Virus genome (UHGV): UHGV-0192852
Reading direction: 5' to 3' (one strand)
Length of the DNA stretch: 44,464 nt
Source: a virus
Below the pieces are notes generated by a model. The model was not told the DNA's origin, did no database searches, and saw nothing but the letters and a program-made list of their open reading frames with translations. The position numbers and the translations under genes were made by a program. Below are positions 2,837 to 40,727 of the stretch, one piece after another (the first letter of the stretch is position 1; each line of letters begins with the position of its first letter).

Positions 2837-3176
2837 TTACGCTGGATTAAAGCGGAAAGTGAATCCGCTGATTAAAAAATTCGGCATGACCGTTACGGTT
2901 ACGCGTCCGGGGTCGGTTGACCGCGTAGACGGCGACGAAGTGGTAATCCCGCCAACGTCGTTCGACGTCATAGGTCTTCGCGAGGAGTACAAGCCTAGCG
3001 AGATCGACGGAACGCGTATCGTTGCCGGTGATGTGAAGTTTTTATGTCGGGCGGTTGAGCAATTGCGGGTGGGCGACCTTGTTAACCTGAACGGCACTGA
3101 CTACCGGGTCGTTAACCCTAACCCACTGCAACCGGCGGGGACGACCATGCTGTTTCAACTACAGCTAAGGGGCTAA
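2817..3176 (+). CDS. putative head closure/head-tail joining protein
   Basis: 119-aa ORF in neck module between connector and tail genes. Confidence 0.4.
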   Translation: MIMAGFNYAGLKRKVNPLIKKFGMTVTVTRPGSVDRVDGDEVVIPPTSFDVIGLREEYKPSEIDGTRIVAGDVKFLCRAVEQLRVGDLVNLNGTDYRVVNPNPLQPAGTTMLFQLQLRG

Positions 3177-3177
3177 C

Positions 3178-3771
3178 GTGGCTGAAGTCTACTCATTCGC
3201 CGCCACTATTGCTACGTGGGTGGATAAGACGAAGGAGAACAACGATAAGGCGGTGCGGGCGTACGGGATGCAAATACTCGGACGCCTTATTGAGATCTCC
3301 CCGGTGGGCGACCCTCGCCGGTGGAAAATTAACAGGGCTTACGCGCTGGCCCGCCAGCACGCGAACAAGGTGAACGCCGCGCAGCGTCGCAAGAATGGTG
3401 GCAAACTGAAGCGCGGGCAGAAAAAGCACGCCAGCGTGCTGGTATCATTCAAGACTAAAAACGGCAACGTCACGTTCCGCCAGCGTGGCTGGGCTGCGAA
3501 GAATTACACCGGCGGACGCTTCCGGGGAAACTGGCAGGTTACGTTCGACCGACCGGCGGTTGGCGCTATCGACCGCGTGGACAAGGCCGGAACGGCAACA
3601 TTAGCCGCTGGGCGTGAAGTGCTGGCGCATTACGATTCCGGTGAATACGGGTCGATCTGGTTTACTAACAACGTGCCATACGCGCAGCGACTTGAGTATG
3701 GCTGGAGTAAACAAGCGCCCGCGGGGATTGTTCGCGTCGTAGCGGCAGAAATTAATTCGAAGGTGAAATAA
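3178..3771 (+). CDS. putative neck/tail completion protein
   Basis: 197-aa ORF, synteny; start abuts previous stop. Confidence 0.4.
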   Translation: MAEVYSFAATIATWVDKTKENNDKAVRAYGMQILGRLIEISPVGDPRRWKINRAYALARQHANKVNAAQRRKNGGKLKRGQKKHASVLVSFKTKNGNVTFRQRGWAAKNYTGGRFRGNWQVTFDRPAVGAIDRVDKAGTATLAAGREVLAHYDSGEYGSIWFTNNVPYAQRLEYGWSKQAPAGIVRVVAAEINSKVK

Positions 3772-19898: not shown

Positions 19899-19952
19899 GA
19901 TGTTTTCCTTTTTAGTGGGAGGCAATACCGCCTCCCGACGAGTTAAATATAG

Positions 19953-19974
19953 TGCAACCAACCTATTGGTTGCA
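19953..19974. promoter_or_regulatory. perfect 22-bp palindromic operator-like site
   Basis: TGCAACCAA-CCTA-TTGGTTGCA; on minus strand followed by CTATATT (-10-like) upstream of gene 19305..19898. Confidence 0.6.
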
Positions 19975-20433
19975 AGTGAATTTTGCAACGTTTATCGCGT
20001 AAATTTTCGGGACCAAATCTCCGCACGCCCGACGAATTGCCGCGATGTTCTTCTCGCAATCTTCAATGATGACCAGTTCCGACACGTCCGCATAGCAGAC
20101 CATTTTGAACACGGCGCACGCCTTAAACTCTGGCGGCGGGGTATCGTCCAGCATGTGGCGCATAAACAACCGGCCTGTCGGGAATACTTCCAGTTGTTCG
20201 GCGGTGGTGTCCCAACATTCTCGCTGCCGGTTGGTCAGATACGCGATCTCGAAGCCTTGCTCTTTATACATGCGCAACAACGGCAGCATATCCATGTTCA
20301 GTTCTTCGCGGACGTGCGCTTTGTGCCACTTCGCCCAAAAGGTGGATTTAGTTTTTATCCCAGGCACCAGGTCGGCACGGGCATCGCTTGAACCGTTAAT
20401 AACGCCATCCAAATCGCAAATCAGTAATTTCAT
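19963..20433 (-). CDS. HAD-superfamily phosphatase (putative nucleotidase / polynucleotide 3'-phosphatase-like)
   Basis: N-terminal LICDLDGVI matches HAD motif I (DxDG). Confidence 0.55.
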   Translation of the reverse strand: MKLLICDLDGVINGSSDARADLVPGIKTKSTFWAKWHKAHVREELNMDMLPLLRMYKEQGFEIAYLTNRQRECWDTTAEQLEVFPTGRLFMRHMLDDTPPPEFKACAVFKMVCYADVSELVIIEDCEKNIAAIRRACGDLVPKIYAINVAKFTCNQ

Positions 20434-20654: not shown

Positions 20655-21120
20655 GTAGTTCTCCTTCGCTCATTATTTCAATTTGTGCGCTGCCGGTGGG
20701 TGGCGCCTCGTCAAAGATTATCAATTGCTGGCACTTGTTATTGCTCGGCCCGACTTCACCGGTCACAGCATGGATGAATCGTATCCGCCAGTCCAGAAGA
20801 ATTATCAGGTTTGCAGTCTTCCGGGCCAGCTTCGCCCACTTAGTCGACGTGTCCTGATTCAGTAGCATGACAGTCTGGCGACCGTGCGCTGCGCATTCCA
20901 CCCACGGCAGCGGATCGGAGTATGGCGGATTGCACCACTTCCACCCCTTCAACTCTGACCAGTCCACATCAAGCGCGCTGCGATCTGCCGTGAAGTAACG
21001 CGGTAGCAGATGATTGGCATCGCTCGCCGCCATGTCATAACGGAATCGGTACTTCCGGCGCAGCGGTTTAAATAAAGCTGGTGGCGTGCGCCAGCTATCC
21101 TTTTGTTCATTCTCAGTCAT
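20635..21120 (-). CDS. dam: DNA N6-adenine methyltransferase (phage Dam family)
   Basis: WRTPP...F...DMAASDANH...WCNPPY motifs typical of phage Dam MTases; ATG 21120 overlaps upstream stop (ATGA). Confidence 0.75.
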   Translation of the reverse strand: MTENEQKDSWRTPPALFKPLRRKYRFRYDMAASDANHLLPRYFTADRSALDVDWSELKGWKWCNPPYSDPLPWVECAAHGRQTVMLLNQDTSTKWAKLARKTANLIILLDWRIRFIHAVTGEVGPSNNKCQQLIIFDEAPPTGSAQIEIMSEGELREYLNR

Positions 21121-21413
21121 ACGGACAACACGGGCGGAAATCGCACGTACTCCTCGGCGCGCTTGCAATGTTCACGTAGGCCTTCTGCTGTGATGCGGTT
21201 TAACGCAACGCTGGTTGTGTATCCTGTGCGCTGCATAATCCCCATCAATTCGAAAAGTAGTTCGAAGCGCTCCTCTAACTCCTTGCGTACCTTCTTCTCG
21301 CCTTCGTAGCTCGCAAGGTGGGCGTCTGCCAGCGCGTTAGCGCGTTCGGCCTGTTCGCGGGCTTCGAGGCATTGCGCGGCCCAGTAATTTTTCTCTTCTT
21401 GTAAGATTTTCAT
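21117..21413 (-). CDS. hypothetical protein
   Basis: 98-aa ORF with GGAGACAA RBS downstream of promoter 21461..21489. Confidence 0.5.
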   Translation of the reverse strand: MKILQEEKNYWAAQCLEAREQAERANALADAHLASYEGEKKVRKELEERFELLFELMGIMQRTGYTTSVALNRITAEGLREHCKRAEEYVRFPPVLSV

Positions 21414-21430: not shown

Positions 21431-21458
21431 TTAAAAAGGGCGTCCAAACCGGACACCC
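21431..21458 (-). terminator. putative terminator overlapping promoter (minus strand)
   Basis: minus-strand GGGTGTCC-GGTTT-GGACGCCC hairpin followed by TTTTTAAT. Confidence 0.45.
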
Positions 21459-21460
21459 TC

Positions 21461-21494
21461 AATATAATGCAACCAATATGGTTATGCAACCAAT
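21461..21494 (-). promoter_or_regulatory. sigma70-like promoter with two TTGGTTGCAT motifs
   Basis: minus strand TTGGTTGCAT-AACCATA-TTGGTTGCAT-TATATTG, i.e. TTGCAT-N17-TATATT; 17-mer CAATATAATGCAACCAA shared with 140..156. Confidence 0.55.
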
Positions 21495-21812
21495 TTACGA
21501 ATAAAAATTTGGGTCGCGCGCAACGTCTACCAGATACAGGTTACTAATGCGGTTGCCGTAATGACCTGGTGTGCGTTGACGGCACACTACGGCATAGCCT
21601 GGAGGGATTGTATTGCCAGTCTCAATAATCCACGCCACGCGTGCGCCGGATAGCGTCTTGCCGTTGTATTCGATACGAGTACCGCCATCGGCAGTGTTAA
21701 GGTTGCCGATCTTGCAGCCTGTGGACTTCAGGCGAATGACGCCGGTCTTGCTGTCGTAGGAAAAAAGCTGATTGGTCATTGCCACTGAAAAGTCGATGGC
21801 TTCGAATGTCAT
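21495..21812 (-). CDS. HNH-family-like protein (NUMOD4/HNH_3-like, apparently degenerate)
   Basis: YDSKTGVIRLK...GARVAWIIETG...NRISNLYLV resembles HNH_3 homing endonucleases, but the expected catalytic His (HIDG) is replaced by RTPGHYG; ATGA overlap with upstream gene. Confidence 0.4.
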   Translation of the reverse strand: MTFEAIDFSVAMTNQLFSYDSKTGVIRLKSTGCKIGNLNTADGGTRIEYNGKTLSGARVAWIIETGNTIPPGYAVVCRQRTPGHYGNRISNLYLVDVARDPNFYS

Positions 21813-22504
21813 TTTAAATTTTCCTCATTTACCGCTATTGCAAAGCCGCGCGGAGTGAGCGACCGGATTAATTTGGTGCGGGCAGATTTGCCTCCGAGGC
21901 GACTATACTGCTTCGAGTACCCATTTTCAACGAAAACAGGTTTCTTCTCTGGCATACGGAAGCCGTTGCCGGTCCATAAGCAGGTCAGCTTCGGATATGA
22001 ATCGCGGGCGTTGATGTATTCCGGGAATAACGGGTGCACGTCATCCTCCGGCAGATATCCACCATACTCCCACGGGTCAAACGAGTGGTCCGGCTTGCGC
22101 CATTGGGTCGATAGCACGCTGCGCGGATTCTCAATCATATATGGCACTTCGAAGAAGTCACCCAGAAAAGCGGCAATCTTCGCGGTGCGCACCGCCTTAA
22201 GCTGAAAGGCCGGGTCTTTGGCCCGCTTGCGCGGGAAAGCTGGCGCACCGCTAACTGCCAGATCCGTACACGGCGGGAACGCATATATGATATCCGGCGT
22301 ACCGAAATCGCCATTCATCGCGCGGTCTACAAAGTCCAGATCAATAAACGCATTGCGATATCGGATCCCGCGACCATAAATCCGGTAGTCCTGGTAAGAC
22401 CCATGATCGGCTTCGGAGTAGTTGAAACAGTAGCATTTGTGCCCCATTTCGGCAGCACGCTCTACCATCAAGCCGCTGCCGTCGAACAATGACCAAAGTA
22501 TCAT
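21809..22504 (-). CDS. putative SAM-dependent DNA methyltransferase with C5-cytosine-MTase-like motifs (short form)
   Basis: motif I-like LFDGSG, motif IV-like FPPCTD (Pro-Cys), motif VI-like IENP; only 231 aa; ATGA overlap with helicase stop. Confidence 0.45.
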   Translation of the reverse strand: MILWSLFDGSGLMVERAAEMGHKCYCFNYSEADHGSYQDYRIYGRGIRYRNAFIDLDFVDRAMNGDFGTPDIIYAFPPCTDLAVSGAPAFPRKRAKDPAFQLKAVRTAKIAAFLGDFFEVPYMIENPRSVLSTQWRKPDHSFDPWEYGGYLPEDDVHPLFPEYINARDSYPKLTCLWTGNGFRMPEKKPVFVENGYSKQYSRLGGKSARTKLIRSLTPRGFAIAVNEENLK

Positions 22505-24192: not shown

Positions 24193-24366
24193 TTATTCTT
24201 GTTCTGCACGATAGCGGCGCTGCCGTTCGCGCTCTTTCTTATTGCGGCAAGACTTGCACTCGGCACGATGACCGTCTGGACTTCGCGCAGTCTTACCGGT
24301 GTATTTGTGGAACTGGGACAGCGGCTTGATGCAGCCGCAATTACTACAACGTTTTTCTTCAACCAT
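24193..24366 (-). CDS. small zinc-ribbon protein (57 aa)
   Basis: AGGAGG RBS 8 nt upstream of ATG; CSNCGC...ECKSCRNK Cys pairs; below track size cutoff. Confidence 0.5.
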   Translation of the reverse strand: MVEEKRCSNCGCIKPLSQFHKYTGKTARSPDGHRAECKSCRNKKERERQRRYRAEQE

Positions 24367-24398
24367 TTCTAAGTCCTCCTAACCGGCACACTATACCG

Positions 24399-24677
24399 CT
24401 ATGCGACCAATTCGGCAACCAATAAATCACAGTCGGCTATGTTGTCAATGACGCGAACATCAGCACCGCGGCGTACCATTCGATCATGTTCACGTACCTG
24501 GTGCGGCCTCGGTTTGCCGCCAGGGCGCTTCACTTCTACGAATACCACTTTGCCGTTTATGATTATAATCAGGTCGGGCGCGCCTGAGCGCCCCTCCCAT
24601 ATCACCTTACGGCAGAATCCGCCAACCGCTTTCACCAGCTTCATCAGGTGACTTTGTACCTTGCCTTCTGGTGTCAT
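24399..24677 (-). CDS. VRR-NUC domain nuclease
   Basis: GAPDLIIIINGKVVFVEVKRPGGKPRPHQ matches PD-(D/E)xK VRR-NUC core (D...E.K...Q). Confidence 0.7.
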   Translation of the reverse strand: MTPEGKVQSHLMKLVKAVGGFCRKVIWEGRSGAPDLIIIINGKVVFVEVKRPGGKPRPHQVREHDRMVRRGADVRVIDNIADCDLLVAELVA

Positions 24678-27946: not shown

Positions 27947-28003
27947 TTTCCAATTCCTCATTTTCACATGTATCGGGGTTATTGTGAGCCACCCCGTTCG
28001 GCT

Positions 28004-28026
28004 TGGTTGCTAATTTACTTGGTTGC
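28004..28026. promoter_or_regulatory. paired TTGGTTGC motifs upstream of SSB gene
   Basis: TTGGTTGC at 28004..28011 and 28019..28026 in intergenic region 27947..28036. Confidence 0.45.
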
Positions 28027-28036
28027 GCCTAAGCGG

Positions 28037-30994: not shown

Positions 30995-31324
30995 ATGAAT
31001 GTAAACGACGCAATCGAAATGTTAACTAAGACTGTTTGCAGTGAGACTAGCCGGTCCTGGGCGTATACCGATGCCGTGGGTGCGGTGCTATTTGAAATCG
31101 AACGACTGCGCAGTGTCGAAAAAGAATTACGCGCCAGGCTGGAATTGCTCAATGGCACGGCAGCAAGCAAGCTGCAAAAGCACAATGAAGAAATGGAAGA
31201 ATACAAAAAGCAGGTTATCCGTTTGCGCGCCGAGGGTAAATCCTGGGCGATGATTGCCGAGTTGACCGGAATTAATCAGAGCACAGTGCGCTCCTGGGTA
31301 CGCAATAATAAAACTTCTAAGTAA
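30995..31324 (+). CDS. HTH DNA-binding regulator
   Basis: C-terminal GKSWAMIAELTGINQSTVRSWVRN helix-turn-helix; first rightward gene of the control region, upstream of primase. Confidence 0.6.
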   Translation: MNVNDAIEMLTKTVCSETSRSWAYTDAVGAVLFEIERLRSVEKELRARLELLNGTAASKLQKHNEEMEEYKKQVIRLRAEGKSWAMIAELTGINQSTVRSWVRNNKTSK

Positions 31325-33603: not shown

Positions 33604-33687
33604 TGCGCGCATTGGTTGCCATGTTGGTTAATTTCTGCGCGCATTGGTTGCCAAATTGCGTGTTTTTAGCTGGTAGTATTGGTTGCC
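33604..33687 (+). promoter_or_regulatory. direct repeats carrying three TTGGTTGCC motifs
   Basis: TGCGCGCATTGGTTGCCA at 33604..33621 repeated at 33636..33653; third TTGGTTGCC at 33679..33687. Confidence 0.6.
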
Positions 33688-33894: not shown

Positions 33895-34054
33895 CATAAA
33901 ATCCGGGGATTGCAAAATACACGGCAGCATGTTGCGGATTGCGGTCGTCGACGAACCCGGCAACCAATGCGAGTTGCAGAATGGAGAGTGAAAAATGCAG
34001 TTTGCAGTTACAGCAGATAGCGATCAACTTTTTCATGCGCGTGATTAATATTGG

Positions 34055-34097
34055 TTGCATTCGTGCCAGCACCCTGCTAGATTGGTTGCACACCAAC
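34055..34097 (+). promoter_or_regulatory. sigma70-like promoter with conserved leader element
   Basis: TTGCAT-N17-TAGATT followed by GGTTGCACACCAAC and AGGAC RBS; same architecture as the minus-strand promoter at 170..141. Confidence 0.55.
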
Positions 34098-36936: not shown

Positions 36937-37104
36937 ATGTTAAAAAGTATTCTTGATCATAACGCCGACGCGCTCGCCGCGCTGGCTAAAACCGAAGACC
37001 CAGGCGCACGTGCCATTATCGCGGACACTATCAGTCATGCTGGCGTCTTTGATGCGAAGCTGCCAAGCCCGCCACCGCCGGAAGAAACCGGCCCAGCGGC
37101 CTAA
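36937..37104 (+). CDS. small hypothetical protein
   Basis: ATG 36937 (MLKSILDH...) in frame within track ORF 36835..37104; Pro-rich C-terminus; followed by terminator. Confidence 0.4.
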   Translation: MLKSILDHNADALAALAKTEDPGARAIIADTISHAGVFDAKLPSPPPPEETGPAA

Positions 37105-37112
37105 CCTAGCAA

Positions 37113-37135
37113 GCCCGGAACTATCCGGGCTTTTT
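37113..37135 (+). terminator. rho-independent terminator after lysis cassette
   Basis: GCCCGGA-ACTA-TCCGGGC hairpin followed by TTTTT. Confidence 0.7.
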
Positions 37136-37140
37136 ATCGC

Positions 37141-37179
37141 TTGACTTGCAACCAATTATCAGACCATACTGCGACCAAT
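37141..37179 (+). promoter_or_regulatory. promoter/operator region with TGCAACCAAT and TGCGACCAAT motifs
   Basis: TTGACT at 37141..37146, motifs at 37147..37156 and 37170..37179, upstream of AGAGGA RBS and small ORFs. Confidence 0.45.
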
Positions 37180-38681: not shown

Positions 38682-38705
38682 GCCTGCCGATTTGGTGGGC
38701 TTTTT
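38682..38705 (+). terminator. putative terminator
   Basis: GCCTGCC-GATTT-GGTGGGC stem (two G-U pairs) followed by TTTTT. Confidence 0.35.
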
Positions 38706-38719
38706 TGTGCCTGTTATAA
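38692..38719 (+). promoter_or_regulatory. promoter with extended -10 upstream of terminase operon
   Basis: TTGGTG-N16-TGTTATAAT (TGn extended -10 at 38711..38719). Confidence 0.45.
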
Positions 38720-38790
38720 TCCACCTTAGATGGCAGGGCCGTCTCCTATGTTGCCGATGGTCGGCGCATATGAACAAAAGGGCTTATATC

Positions 38791-39342
38791 ATGGCAGAAA
38801 TCAAAGTTAAGGGCCGACGCGCCAAACTGGACGGACGAGTAGCAGTAACCCCGCGCCGTAAACCAGGCGAGCAAACAGAGCACACCAATCTCGGACCTGA
38901 AATCGAGTACGGAAAGCGCCGTAAAGGCGGAAAATGTGGACGCCCTACTGACTACCGATCCGTTTACTGCGACCAGCTTCGCCGCTATTTTGCCGACGCC
39001 GACGCCTGGCAGGTAAACTACTCCGATAAAGGCGCTGCGCAAGTAATCCCCCGCAACAAAATGCCGACCTTCGGTCGTTTTGCCGCAGAAATTGGTGTGG
39101 GCGTAGCTTGCCTGTATCGCTGGGCGCGTGCGCATGAGGAGTTCGCCGAGGCGATGGCGGACGCTATGGAGTTGCAGAAAACTTTCCTGATGGAAGCTGG
39201 CGGCGTGACCATCGCGGCAGGCTTCGCTACGTTCCTGCTTAAAGCAAACCACGGCATCCGGGACGATGTACCGCTGGATGACGACGAAGATGATAACGGC
39301 GACGTCGTTGTCGAACCCACCGGCAAAGGTCAGGGTGAGTAA
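38791..39342 (+). CDS. terminase small subunit
   Basis: 183-aa protein immediately upstream of and overlapping terminase large subunit; AAAGGG RBS; HTH-like FGRFAAEIGVGVACLYRWARAHEEF. Confidence 0.6.
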   Translation: MAEIKVKGRRAKLDGRVAVTPRRKPGEQTEHTNLGPEIEYGKRRKGGKCGRPTDYRSVYCDQLRRYFADADAWQVNYSDKGAAQVIPRNKMPTFGRFAAEIGVGVACLYRWARAHEEFAEAMADAMELQKTFLMEAGGVTIAAGFATFLLKANHGIRDDVPLDDDEDDNGDVVVEPTGKGQGE

Positions 39343-40727
39343 TGCGCAACTATGCGGCAGAACACCGCGCACTCGAACGCGCGATTGCAAAGCGCAACCG
39401 ACCGCCGCGCCCTACGCGTGTTGCGCAGGCCGTCCGCCTGTATCAGCCTGATTGCCTTCCGCACCAGGTGGAACTACTGCGCGACACTAAGACTAAAATC
39501 CTCGGTCTGTGTTCCGGCTTCGGCGGCGGAAAGTCCTGGGTAGCGGCACGTAAGGTTATCCAGCTTCTGACACTGAATCCCGGTCACGACGGAATTGTGA
39601 CAGAACCGACTATCCCACTCCTGGTTAAAATCATGTATCCGGAGCTGGAGAAGGCTTTCGATGAGGCTGGCTTCCGGTGGAAGTTCAACAAGCAGGACAA
39701 GATCTATAGCGTGCTGGTGAAAGGCAAATGGACGCGCGTTATTTGTGAGTCAATGGAGAACTATACCCGCCTTATCGGTGTTAACGCCGCGTGGATTGTT
39801 GCCGATGAGTTCGACACCACGAAGCAAGACGTTGCAATGGCGGCGTATCACAAATTGCTAGGTCGTCTGCGTGCGGGCCTGGTGCGCCAGTTTGTCATCG
39901 TGTCTACGCCTGAAGGCTACCGGGCGATGTACCAGATTTTCGAAGTGGAGAAGGATAGCCAAAAACGTTTGATCCGGGCGAAGACTACCGACAACCACCA
40001 TTTACCGGCGGACTTTATCGACACGCTGCGCAGCCAGTATCCGGCAAACCTGATTGACGCGTACCTTAAAGGCCTGTTTGTCAACCTCACATCCGGCGCG
40101 GTATACAAAATGTTTAACCGCGAGGAGAACGCCAGCACCGAGGAAGTGCTACCGAATGATACGTTGATTATCGGTATGGACTTTAACGTCACTAAAATGG
40201 CGGCGGTCGTGTACGTCAGACGGCAGCGCATCACGGAGAACAAGGAGTTCCGCGACGAGATTCACGCCGTGGATGAATTTGTGGACCTGTTTGACACCCC
40301 GGCTATGATTGAGGCGATCGAGGAGCGCTACCCCGATCATTGTGCTGCCGGTCGTGTTGTCGTTTACCCGGATAGCAGTGGCAAGTCTCGTAAGACGGTT
40401 AACGCATCGTCATCCGATATCGCGCAACTGGAAGATGCGGGCTTCGAGGTGGAATATGACAGCGTTAATCCACCCGTGAAAGACCGATTGATCGCGATGA
40501 ATACGATGATGTGCAACTCGAAGGGCGTGCGCCAGTATTTTGTCAACCTGGATAAATGCCCTACACTAGCGAAATGTCTGGAACAGCAGGTTTACGACCT
40601 GAAGAAAGGCGAGCCGGATAAAACCGCCGGTGTGGATCACATGAACGATGCTGCGGGCTATCCAATTGCGCACCTGTTCCCAGTGATTCGTCCAATCGCC
40701 GTTGTTCCAACTGTAGACTTCTACTAA
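39342..40727 (+). CDS. terminase large subunit
   Basis: 461 aa with Walker A-like GLCSGFGGGKS and ATPase/nuclease layout; precedes portal. Confidence 0.85.
   Translation: MRNYAAEHRALERAIAKRNRPPRPTRVAQAVRLYQPDCLPHQVELLRDTKTKILGLCSGFGGGKSWVAARKVIQLLTLNPGHDGIVTEPTIPLLVKIMYPELEKAFDEAGFRWKFNKQDKIYSVLVKGKWTRVICESMENYTRLIGVNAAWIVADEFDTTKQDVAMAAYHKLLGRLRAGLVRQFVIVSTPEGYRAMYQIFEVEKDSQKRLIRAKTTDNHHLPADFIDTLRSQYPANLIDAYLKGLFVNLTSGAVYKMFNREENASTEEVLPNDTLIIGMDFNVTKMAAVVYVRRQRITENKEFRDEIHAVDEFVDLFDTPAMIEAIEERYPDHCAAGRVVVYPDSSGKSRKTVNASSSDIAQLEDAGFEVEYDSVNPPVKDRLIAMNTMMCNSKGVRQYFVNLDKCPTLAKCLEQQVYDLKKGEPDKTAGVDHMNDAAGYPIAHLFPVIRPIAVVPTVDFY

Follow-up and report, generated by a model that had tools for sequence, protein, structure and literature searches.

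Among the described systems closest to the gene considered here is I-HmuI of Bacillus phage SPO1 (PDB 1U3E), an intron-encoded HNH homing endonuclease that nicks DNA. I-HmuI has D74, H75 and N96 as its catalytic residues, and the N-terminal domain of enzymes of this type sits in the DNA major groove (PMC12724721). Cleavage is not the only use to which the DNA-binding surface of a homing endonuclease can be put; I-TevI of phage T4 is a transcriptional autorepressor, its DNA-binding surface occupying an operator that overlaps a phage promoter, with no cleavage (PMC2988022). Here we describe a gene in the virus genome UHGV-0192852, a stretch of 44,464 nucleotides referred to throughout as the window, which lies on the minus strand between positions 21,495 and 21,812 and encodes a protein of 105 amino acids (aa). 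This protein is a homologue of the HNH_3 / I-HmuI-type proteins that has lost their canonical catalytic residues, and its gene is a fixed, strongly selected core gene. With somewhat better than even confidence, we favour the reading that the gene encodes a pseudo-nuclease derived from an HNH_3 / I-HmuI-type ancestor, which would now bind DNA without cutting it.

The window is a Dhillonvirus genome, that is, an HK578/SO-1-like E. coli siphophage; the 2.2 kb surrounding the gene have 90-92% identity to those of Sodalis phage SO-1, Henu5_1, StarDew and many more. The orthologue is labelled "HNH endonuclease" or "homing endonuclease" in most of the Dhillonvirus records among the matches listed.

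Results

A Homologue of the HNH_3 Homing Endonucleases

The open reading frame begins with ATG and its translation is MTFEAIDFSVAMTNQLFSYDSKTGVIRLKSTGCKIGNLNTADGGTRIEYNGKTLSGARVAWIIETGNTIPPGYAVVCRQRTPGHYGNRISNLYLVDVARDPNFYS. An earlier note on this DNA had described the product as 105 aa long with an N-terminal YDSKTG...LK block and a C-terminal NRISNLYLV block, and this proved correct: YDSKTGVIRLK (residues 19-29), RTPGHYG (80-86) and NRISNLYLV (87-95) are all found in the protein. Of the HNH_3/NUMOD4-like character that the same note assigned to it, the kinship to HNH_3 stands and the NUMOD4 label is not backed by the Pfam model. The protein matches PHROG phrog_99 ("HNH endonuclease") over residues 7-97 with an E-value (E) of 1.5e-16, and when an alignment of its subfamily (A4) was compared with one of canonical HNH_3 proteins (A5) in hhalign, the probability was 99.4% (E 6e-22) over 91 columns with 33% identity. 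It is because of these two results, and not of Pfam alone, that we consider the homology significant, as the Pfam HNH_3 model (PF13392) gave 13.8 bits against a gathering threshold of 24.8 (E 0.046) and covered residues 58-75 only. The divergent relative P0016 exceeds that threshold, with 32.7 bits. The NUMOD4 model of Pfam gave no match to the protein at E<=1, and the sole support for a NUMOD4-type region is the match in fold to the N-terminal domain of I-HmuI.

An exhaustive phmmer search over 1.84 billion representatives returned 18 matches only, with canonical HNH_3 proteins among them, and connects the protein to P0020, P0015 and P0019. No match was found in the PDB with the single protein sequence, and a search with the subfamily profile found I-HmuI only, at a marginal E of 0.079; searches of NCBIfam and PADLOC also returned no matches for this protein. 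The AlphaFold2 model built from 16 sequences has a pLDDT of 89.2 and a pTM of 0.82, and dozens of phage HNH and homing endonucleases in the BFVD viral structure library match it with TMq values of 0.6-0.74. Within the putative counterpart of the I-HmuI N-terminal DNA-binding domain (residues 7-64, Table 1), the conserved positions are DFS, Y19, T23-G24, R27, G36, G43-G44, N50, K52, R58 and W61. The two strands of the hairpin that follows are modelled at 72-76 and 91-95 (the model numbering being the protein numbering minus 1), and the order of secondary structure elements is the same as in the model of canonical P0020 as far as beta2.

We also observed that in gp31 of Edwardsiella phage eiAU (L003:2860-2990; P0008 residues 38-57) an N-terminal extension matches an I-HmuI NUMOD-like motif with a sub-threshold E of 3e-4. 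This motif is usually C-terminal in homing endonucleases, and the extension may be the remnant of a fused endonuclease or the result of a mis-called start.

The Catalytic Positions

The columns of the protein were mapped to those of canonical proteins by hhalign profile-profile and MAFFT alignments, and the I-HmuI segment in the profile alignment agrees with the residue numbering given above, N87 being the structural Asn. The canonical i-D-H-i-N columns correspond to V75-V76-C77-R78-Q79, next to which lies a two-residue insertion, T81-P82 (Table 1). At the place of the catalytic His, each of the 16 aligned subfamily sequences has C, L or P and none has His; Dhillonvirus, eiAU, P0006 and P0016 have Cys, the clade P0022-P0026 (54-63% identical to the window protein) has Leu and P0009 has Pro, and the residue preceding this lost general base, Asp in canonical proteins, is V, T or R. 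The motif DH...N..NL is present in 118/118 of the best canonical relatives, whose median length is 169 aa.

The scaffold around these positions is retained. In comparison with a 36-sequence canonical alignment the protein keeps Y19, T23, G24, G36, R58, W61, G66, P70, N87, R88, N91 and L92, and the structural Asn is in place, N91-L92 being invariant and aligned both to the canonical N-L and to the corresponding residues of I-HmuI. The near-invariant polar residues of the HNH core, H53, D72, H73, N75, D80, N94 and N97 in P0020 numbering, are replaced. The model of canonical P0020 has beta1 at 69-73, beta2 at 86-90 and a helix at 91-96, followed by an AP2 domain. The model of the window protein has no helix after beta2; nine residues remain, Pro101 included, and the protein ends at residue 105 directly after the hairpin, with no C-terminal NUMOD3, helix-turn-helix (HTH) or AP2 module. 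In the model the metal finger is thus reduced to a beta-hairpin.

Judged from the alignments and the model, the canonical active site is degenerate, with D-H changed to V-C, the Asn helix absent and further polar core residues replaced. A degenerate active site is what the earlier note had supposed, and both profile alignment and active-site mapping bear it out. The loss of the catalytic His was also rightly called, although its position is Cys77 and not the string RTPGHYG, where the note had placed it and which is the following beta1-beta2 loop. Neither an intact HNH motif nor a lack of similarity to HNH families was found; the motif is lost and the similarity is significant.

Other positions are conserved within the subfamily itself. 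In alignment A4, H84 is invariant and G83, Y85 and D96 are nearly so, P0009 having THA in the place of GHY and no D96. The position equivalent to N96 of I-HmuI is often acidic, D100 being D or N in the closer clade and the equivalent place ED in eiAU and P0006. Cys77 as a novel zinc or catalytic site was considered and rejected, since the 54-63% identical clade has Leu at this position and P0009 has Pro. The first His of an "HR" motif, A57 here, was likewise considered as a lost catalytic residue and proved uninformative, the DH-bearing canonical proteins P0027, P0028 and P0014 also being without it.

A Core Gene under Purifying Selection

By tblastn the HNH-like protein was found at >=80% aa identity in 158 phage records, and the Dhillonvirus-type SNF2 helicase (>=90% identity) likewise in 158 records; the HNH-like gene is at the same locus wherever examined. 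Pairwise ratios of nonsynonymous to synonymous divergence (dN/dS; Nei-Gojobori, NG86) among 15 orthologues have a median of 0.03, with a mean dS of 0.66. With these figures the reading frame is clearly no product of chance. More distant homologues (36-63% identity) are present in Edwardsiella eiAU phages as well as in metagenomic siphophage contigs, and in eiAU and the contigs L019, L020/L021 and L026 they are always zero or one genes 3' of the SNF2 helicase. The order in Dhillonvirus-like clades is helicase, a 231-aa gene resembling C5 methyltransferases and the HNH-like gene, the latter two with a 4-bp overlap; in eiAU it is helicase, HNH-like gene, methyltransferase and Dam; and in L019 it is helicase, DUF7167 and HNH-like gene, with no methyltransferase. 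The ATGA overlap is identical in StarDew, L020/L021 and L026, and suggests that translation of the HNH-like gene is coupled to that of the methyltransferase-like gene. In Jerseyvirus VSe103 there are a helicase (67% identity) and a short methyltransferase (62%) but no HNH-like homologue; the helicase is followed there by a Toprim-like gene.

The sporadic, insertion-like distribution that marks mobile homing endonuclease genes was not seen for the HNH-like gene, which is a fixed, selected core gene of Dhillonvirus and related siphophages and is neither mobile nor decaying.

Two further observations concern individual relatives. L026 carries, at 3362-3712 and between genes for a single-stranded DNA-binding protein and a DNA polymerase, a genuine HNH_3 gene of 116 aa with the DH motif, which is absent at that place in the window; it would be an example of a sporadic homing endonuclease gene within the same phage group. 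In the old record of Escherichia phage SSL-2009a (L018, match 3001-3308) there is a frameshift after residue 75 that would delete the degenerate hairpin, and that is either a sequencing error or a natural knockout.

Motifs and Neighbouring Genes

The features of the locus are collected in Table 1. The HNH-like gene is the last of a putative operon, in the order zinc-ribbon gene, 74-aa gene, SNF2 helicase, C5 methyltransferase-like gene and HNH-like gene. In the promoter-like element directly 3' of the gene, the first copy of the 9-mer TTGGTTGCA yields a TTGCAT -35-like hexamer, which is followed after a 17-nt spacer by a TATATT -10-like hexamer at 21461-21466. The same arrangement is found 1-3 nt past the stop codon in L020, L026 and L019, and the element appears to mark the end of the operon that holds the HNH-like gene.

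Table 1. Coordinates and residue correspondences of the HNH-like gene and associated elements in the window.
Feature	Position in the window	Strand	Basis
Coding sequence of the degenerate HNH_3 / I-HmuI-like protein, 105 aa (stop codon included)	21495..21812	minus	open reading frame list
Shine-Dalgarno sequence GAGGA, 9 nt 5' of the ATG	21822..21826	minus	read from the sequence
ATGA overlap, stop of the 231-aa C5-methyltransferase-like gene and start of the HNH-like gene	21809..21812	minus	open reading frame coordinates and sequence
N-terminal helix, beta-sheet domain and helix alpha1, residues 7-64, putative counterpart of the I-HmuI N-terminal DNA-binding domain	21621..21794	minus	
Beta-hairpin, remnant of the beta-beta-alpha-metal finger, residues 73-96: beta1 YAVVC, loop RQRTPGHYGNRIS, beta2 LYLVD	21525..21596	minus	AlphaFold2
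Val76-Cys77 codons, at the catalytic Asp-His positions	21582..21587	minus	hhalign, MAFFT
His84 codon, in the beta1-beta2 loop beside the two-residue insertion	21561..21563	minus	invariant columns of alignment A4
Asp100 codon, at the I-HmuI N96 position, in a Pro-containing coil and not a helix	21513..21515	minus	hhalign, I-HmuI alignment, AlphaFold2
Metal-binding Asp, I-HmuI D74: V76 in the 105-aa protein			
General-base His, I-HmuI H75: C77 in the 105-aa protein			
"DNR", I-HmuI (N83-L84): G86-N87-R88 in the 105-aa protein			
Structural "NL", I-HmuI N87-L88: N91-L92 in the 105-aa protein			
Helix-borne metal-binding Asn, I-HmuI N96: D100 in the 105-aa protein			
Promoter-like element directly 3' of the HNH-like gene	21461..21493	minus	two direct TTGGTTGCA copies, 21485-21493 and 21468-21476
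GC-rich 10-bp hairpin and U-run, intrinsic-terminator-like	21432..21459	minus	RNA fold; conserved in L026
Promoter-like site with the TTGGTTGCC/TTGGTCGCA motif pair, head of the putative operon	24390..24422	minus	promoter scan, motif listing
TTGGTTGCA sites	134-156, 16252, 19953-19974, 21468-21493, 24402-24422, 28003-28027		
Further TTGGTTGCA sites	30796, 33612-33687, 33959, 34051-34090, 34599, 37147-37178		

The 9-mer is the most over-represented of the window, with 14 exact copies against about 0.3 expected, or 26 copies against 12+-3 when one mismatch is allowed, and it is also the top over-represented 9-mer of Edwardsiella phage eiAU. Most copies form intergenic pairs, the densest cluster lying just 3' of the primase-helicase gene, and a frequent form is TTGGTTGCA(T/C)TATATT, preceded at a distance of 17-18 nt by the -35-like hexamer TTGCAT; in L019 the motif occurs as pairs of (A/C/T)TGGTTGCA, and in Jerseyvirus VSe103 it is absent. 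The motif looks like a candidate operator or iteron of this phage group. A search of the literature on Dhillonvirus HNH genes, Dhillonvirus promoters and the motif string returned nothing on either the HNH-like gene or the TTGGTTGCA motif. It did bring up a gene for escape from Retron-Eco7 in a Dhillonvirus, there described as "of unknown function".

When viral contigs were scanned for motif pairs, many unrelated tandem repeats came up, and the informative cases were L106 and L044 only. L106 (IMGVR_UViG_3300005460_000764) has 65% GC, and its PolA, primase, VRR-NUC and helicase are only 28-33% identical; tandem CTTGGTTGCA repeats lie between the primase and VRR-NUC genes in both contigs (L106:6313-6640, L044:2750-3160). 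Because both carry it at this place, the association of the same 9-mer with this replication module extends over very divergent lineages. We further note a layout that recurs on the minus strand at 21432-21493, 19920-19975 and 37100-37155, in which a motif pair and a -10-like hexamer have a GC-rich hairpin within about 8 nt; a U-run after the hairpin was noted for the element at 21432-21493. The predicted start falls inside the 5' arm of the hairpin, and we speculate that transcripts from upstream could terminate there while the promoter's own transcripts escape.

Several neighbouring genes deserve mention. The first gene of the putative operon (24193-24366, minus) encodes a 57-aa CxxC...CxxC zinc-ribbon protein with a basic tail, whose distribution nearly equals that of the HNH-like gene (Dhillonvirus, eiAU and L019, absent in Jerseyvirus VSe103) and whose public labels vary among "Lar-like restriction alleviation", "HNH endonuclease" and "kilA anti-repressor". 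The 231-aa protein (21809-22504, minus) has the C5-cytosine methyltransferase-like motifs FDGSG, PPC and ENP; its only match is PHROG phrog_757, with none in Pfam or NCBIfam, it is unusually short for a C5 methyltransferase, and its Jerseyvirus homologue lies upstream of the helicase and not downstream. The HNH-like protein as obligate partner of this short methyltransferase was rejected, given the methyltransferase without the gene in VSe103 and the gene without the methyltransferase in L019. A VRR-NUC nuclease gene (24399-24677, minus) is situated between the DNA polymerase and helicase genes, and its presence led us to reject the idea that the HNH-like protein replaces the VRR-NUC that usually follows such helicases. 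Beyond the terminator-like hairpin, a 98-aa protein (21117-21413, minus) matches PHROG phrog_10530 "DNA ligase", a label that is implausible given its size and the lack of a ligase domain. It is without the C-terminal third of its 154-aa Henu5_1 orthologue, and some relatives have one more small gene nearby (StarDew gp33). Finally, a 109-aa protein with a sigma-70 region-4-like HTH (30995-31324, plus) precedes the primase gene, and no homologue of it was found by tblastn in eiAU, L019 or VSe103.

Discussion

The earlier note had raised the possibility of an inactivated homing endonuclease domesticated as a DNA-binding factor. Inactivation and domestication agree with the loss of the canonical site and with a gene that is fixed and selected; a role in DNA binding is one that we infer. 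In the scenario we favour, the ancestor would have been an HNH_3 / I-HmuI-type homing endonuclease, of which the N-terminal beta-sheet DNA-recognition domain and the hairpin of the finger were retained while the catalytic Asp-His pair, the metal-binding Asn helix and the C-terminal AP2/HTH modules were lost. The gene is no longer a mobile, selfish one; it has become fixed, stands last in the SNF2-helicase operon and is under strong purifying selection. The basic 105-aa protein would bind DNA, whether a sequence of the phage or a DNA structure, through its I-HmuI-like surface, with no cleavage, and would serve the replication/DNA-metabolism module in an accessory or regulatory capacity.

DNA binding would be the most likely role of the protein, judging from its predicted fold, its basic isoelectric point (pI) and its relatives. 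We favour a non-cleaving DNA binder because the members are basic (pI 8-10 across all of them), because the conserved positions include the basic residues R27, K52, R58 and R88, because the N-terminal domain appears to be retained, and because divergent members seem to carry extra DNA-binding modules: P0009 has an HTH tail, seen as a weak sub-threshold Pfam match, gp31 of eiAU has the likewise sub-threshold NUMOD-like motif described above, and in P0016 inspection of the alignment by eye, and this only, suggests a tail resembling AP2. Several points weigh on the other side. The C-terminal NUMOD3/HTH/AP2 modules, which are the source of most of the sequence specificity of I-HmuI-type enzymes, are lost, and the protein need not have a specific target. 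These data would be equally compatible with a role in protein binding alone. A non-canonical metal site is conceivable in principle, made up of His84, Asp96 and the Asp100/Asn that stands in the place of N96. Moreover, since VSe103, a relative in this module, manages its helicase and methyltransferase without the gene, the HNH-like protein would seem to be an accessory to the replication machinery and not an essential part of it.

The protein-binding role is doubtful. Here the protein would bind no DNA and would serve as an adaptor or decoy, modulating the SNF2 helicase or the C5 methyltransferase or masking the phage from a host defence that senses HNH-type nucleases, and the place kept close behind the helicase in four lineages, the translational coupling to the methyltransferase-like gene in Dhillonvirus-like clades and the lost C-terminal DNA-binding modules are all compatible with it. 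However, the methyltransferase occurs without the gene in VSe103 and the gene without the methyltransferase in L019, the helicase is without the gene in both VSe103 and L106, and there is no PADLOC match; the four conserved basic residues and the I-HmuI-like N-terminal domain instead point to contact with nucleic acid. Continued nuclease or nickase activity through a rearranged site, in which His84 would replace the general base and Asp96 and/or Asp100 would hold the metal, is unlikely. The active-site mapping makes a divergent nuclease less likely, with C, L or P at the general-base position and V, T or R for the preceding Asp, with no helix to present the second metal ligand and a low-confidence, Pro-containing tail in its place, and with the substitutions in P0009 already described. 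Even so, the invariance of His84 (with G83, Y85 and D96 nearly invariant) among members of only 36-60% identity keeps some weight for this alternative, as do the alignment of D100 with the metal-binding Asn of both canonical proteins and I-HmuI and the acidic residues of eiAU and P0006 at the same place. To our knowledge, no beta-beta-alpha-metal nuclease has its general base relocated into the hairpin loop.

Improbable, by a similar measure, is the idea that the protein binds the repeated TTGGTTGCA specifically as a transcription or replication regulator derived from a homing endonuclease. Such a regulator, which we regard with the same scepticism, would read the promoter/iteron motif with an I-HmuI-type DNA-recognition domain and not with an HTH. 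In its favour are the over-representation of the motif in the window and eiAU and its pairing at promoter-like sites, the motif pair immediately past the stop codon of the HNH-like gene in four lineages, and VSe103, which has neither motif nor gene; the only non-structural genes common to the window, eiAU and L019 and absent in VSe103 are those for the HNH-like and the 57-aa zinc-ribbon proteins, and the autorepressor I-TevI would be a precedent by analogy. Nevertheless, in L106 CTTGGTTGCA is repeated eight times in tandem beside the primase gene, and no HNH-like gene could be detected in 13.4 of the 17.3 kb, which weakens the link between protein and motif, and L044 carries a similar iteron-like cluster. 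The densest clusters in the window and eiAU, just after the primase-helicase gene, are also iteron-like; the zinc-ribbon protein, the HTH protein at 30995..31324 and the primase-helicase are other candidates for the binder; and the phyletic correlation consists of one negative genome and of positives that are related and non-independent. As for a functionless, decaying remnant of a homing endonuclease, the short protein, the missing catalytic residues and C-terminal domains and the SSL-2009a frameshift are what a pseudogene might show, but the evidence on selection and distribution in effect disproves this explanation: a dN/dS of about 0.03 with saturating synonymous divergence, equal numbers of records for helicase and HNH-like gene, and conservation across genera with the same length and synteny. 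The compact, high-confidence fold and the gene's own Shine-Dalgarno sequence and translational coupling speak against it as well.

The label "HNH endonuclease" for this gene is thus probably wrong with regard to function, as the gene is not mobile and the canonical catalytic residues are gone. What is new here is a truncated pseudo-HNH_3 protein that has become fixed as a core phage gene, and it offers a natural example of a selfish nuclease gene turned into a fixed, strongly selected gene of a phage. The protein is small (105 aa), its model is confident and the BASEL collection offers E. coli phages to work with, which makes the system a tractable one for asking what the I-HmuI-type N-terminal domain does alone. 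If its target were the conserved TTGGTTGCA element the protein would represent a new class of phage regulator, and if not, the outcome is a modest correction of annotation.

Relation to Described Nucleases

The canonical HNH_3 (+AP2) proteins of proteobacterial phages and prophages, such as P0020 (163 aa), comprise at least 6,587 relatives at E<=1e-5, and their entire N-terminal domain and hairpin can be aligned with the window protein. The motifs F-x-Y-D-x-x-T-G, R-x-A-W, G-x-x-x-P, N-R and N-L are common to both. The canonical DH...DNR..NL...N..N, the alpha-helix of the metal finger and the usual AP2 domain are not in the window protein, which for its part has the two-residue loop insertion with GHY and an N-terminal DFS conserved in its subfamily. 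I-HmuI has D74/H75 where the window protein has V76/C77, and its N96-bearing helix, NUMOD3-like helices and C-terminal HTH, within 174 aa, have no counterpart in the 105 aa of the latter; I-HmuI is also intron-encoded, whereas the window gene is neither intron-encoded nor sporadic.

The likeness to I-TevI is one of functional analogy only, namely the use of the DNA-binding surface of a homing endonuclease without cleavage. I-TevI is a GIY-YIG enzyme that has kept its catalytic domain and its mobility, whereas in the window protein catalysis has apparently been lost for good. Like the window protein, the terminase-associated HNH proteins of cos/HK97-like phages (for example HK97 gp74 and GVE2 HNHE) are small phage proteins of the HNH superfamily encoded by core genes that are not mobile. 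These terminase-associated proteins belong to a different family (Pfam HNH, PF01844-type), keep the catalytic His and are encoded beside the terminase; unlike their genes, the HNH-like gene is part of the replication module and a long way from the terminase genes of the window at 38692..40727.

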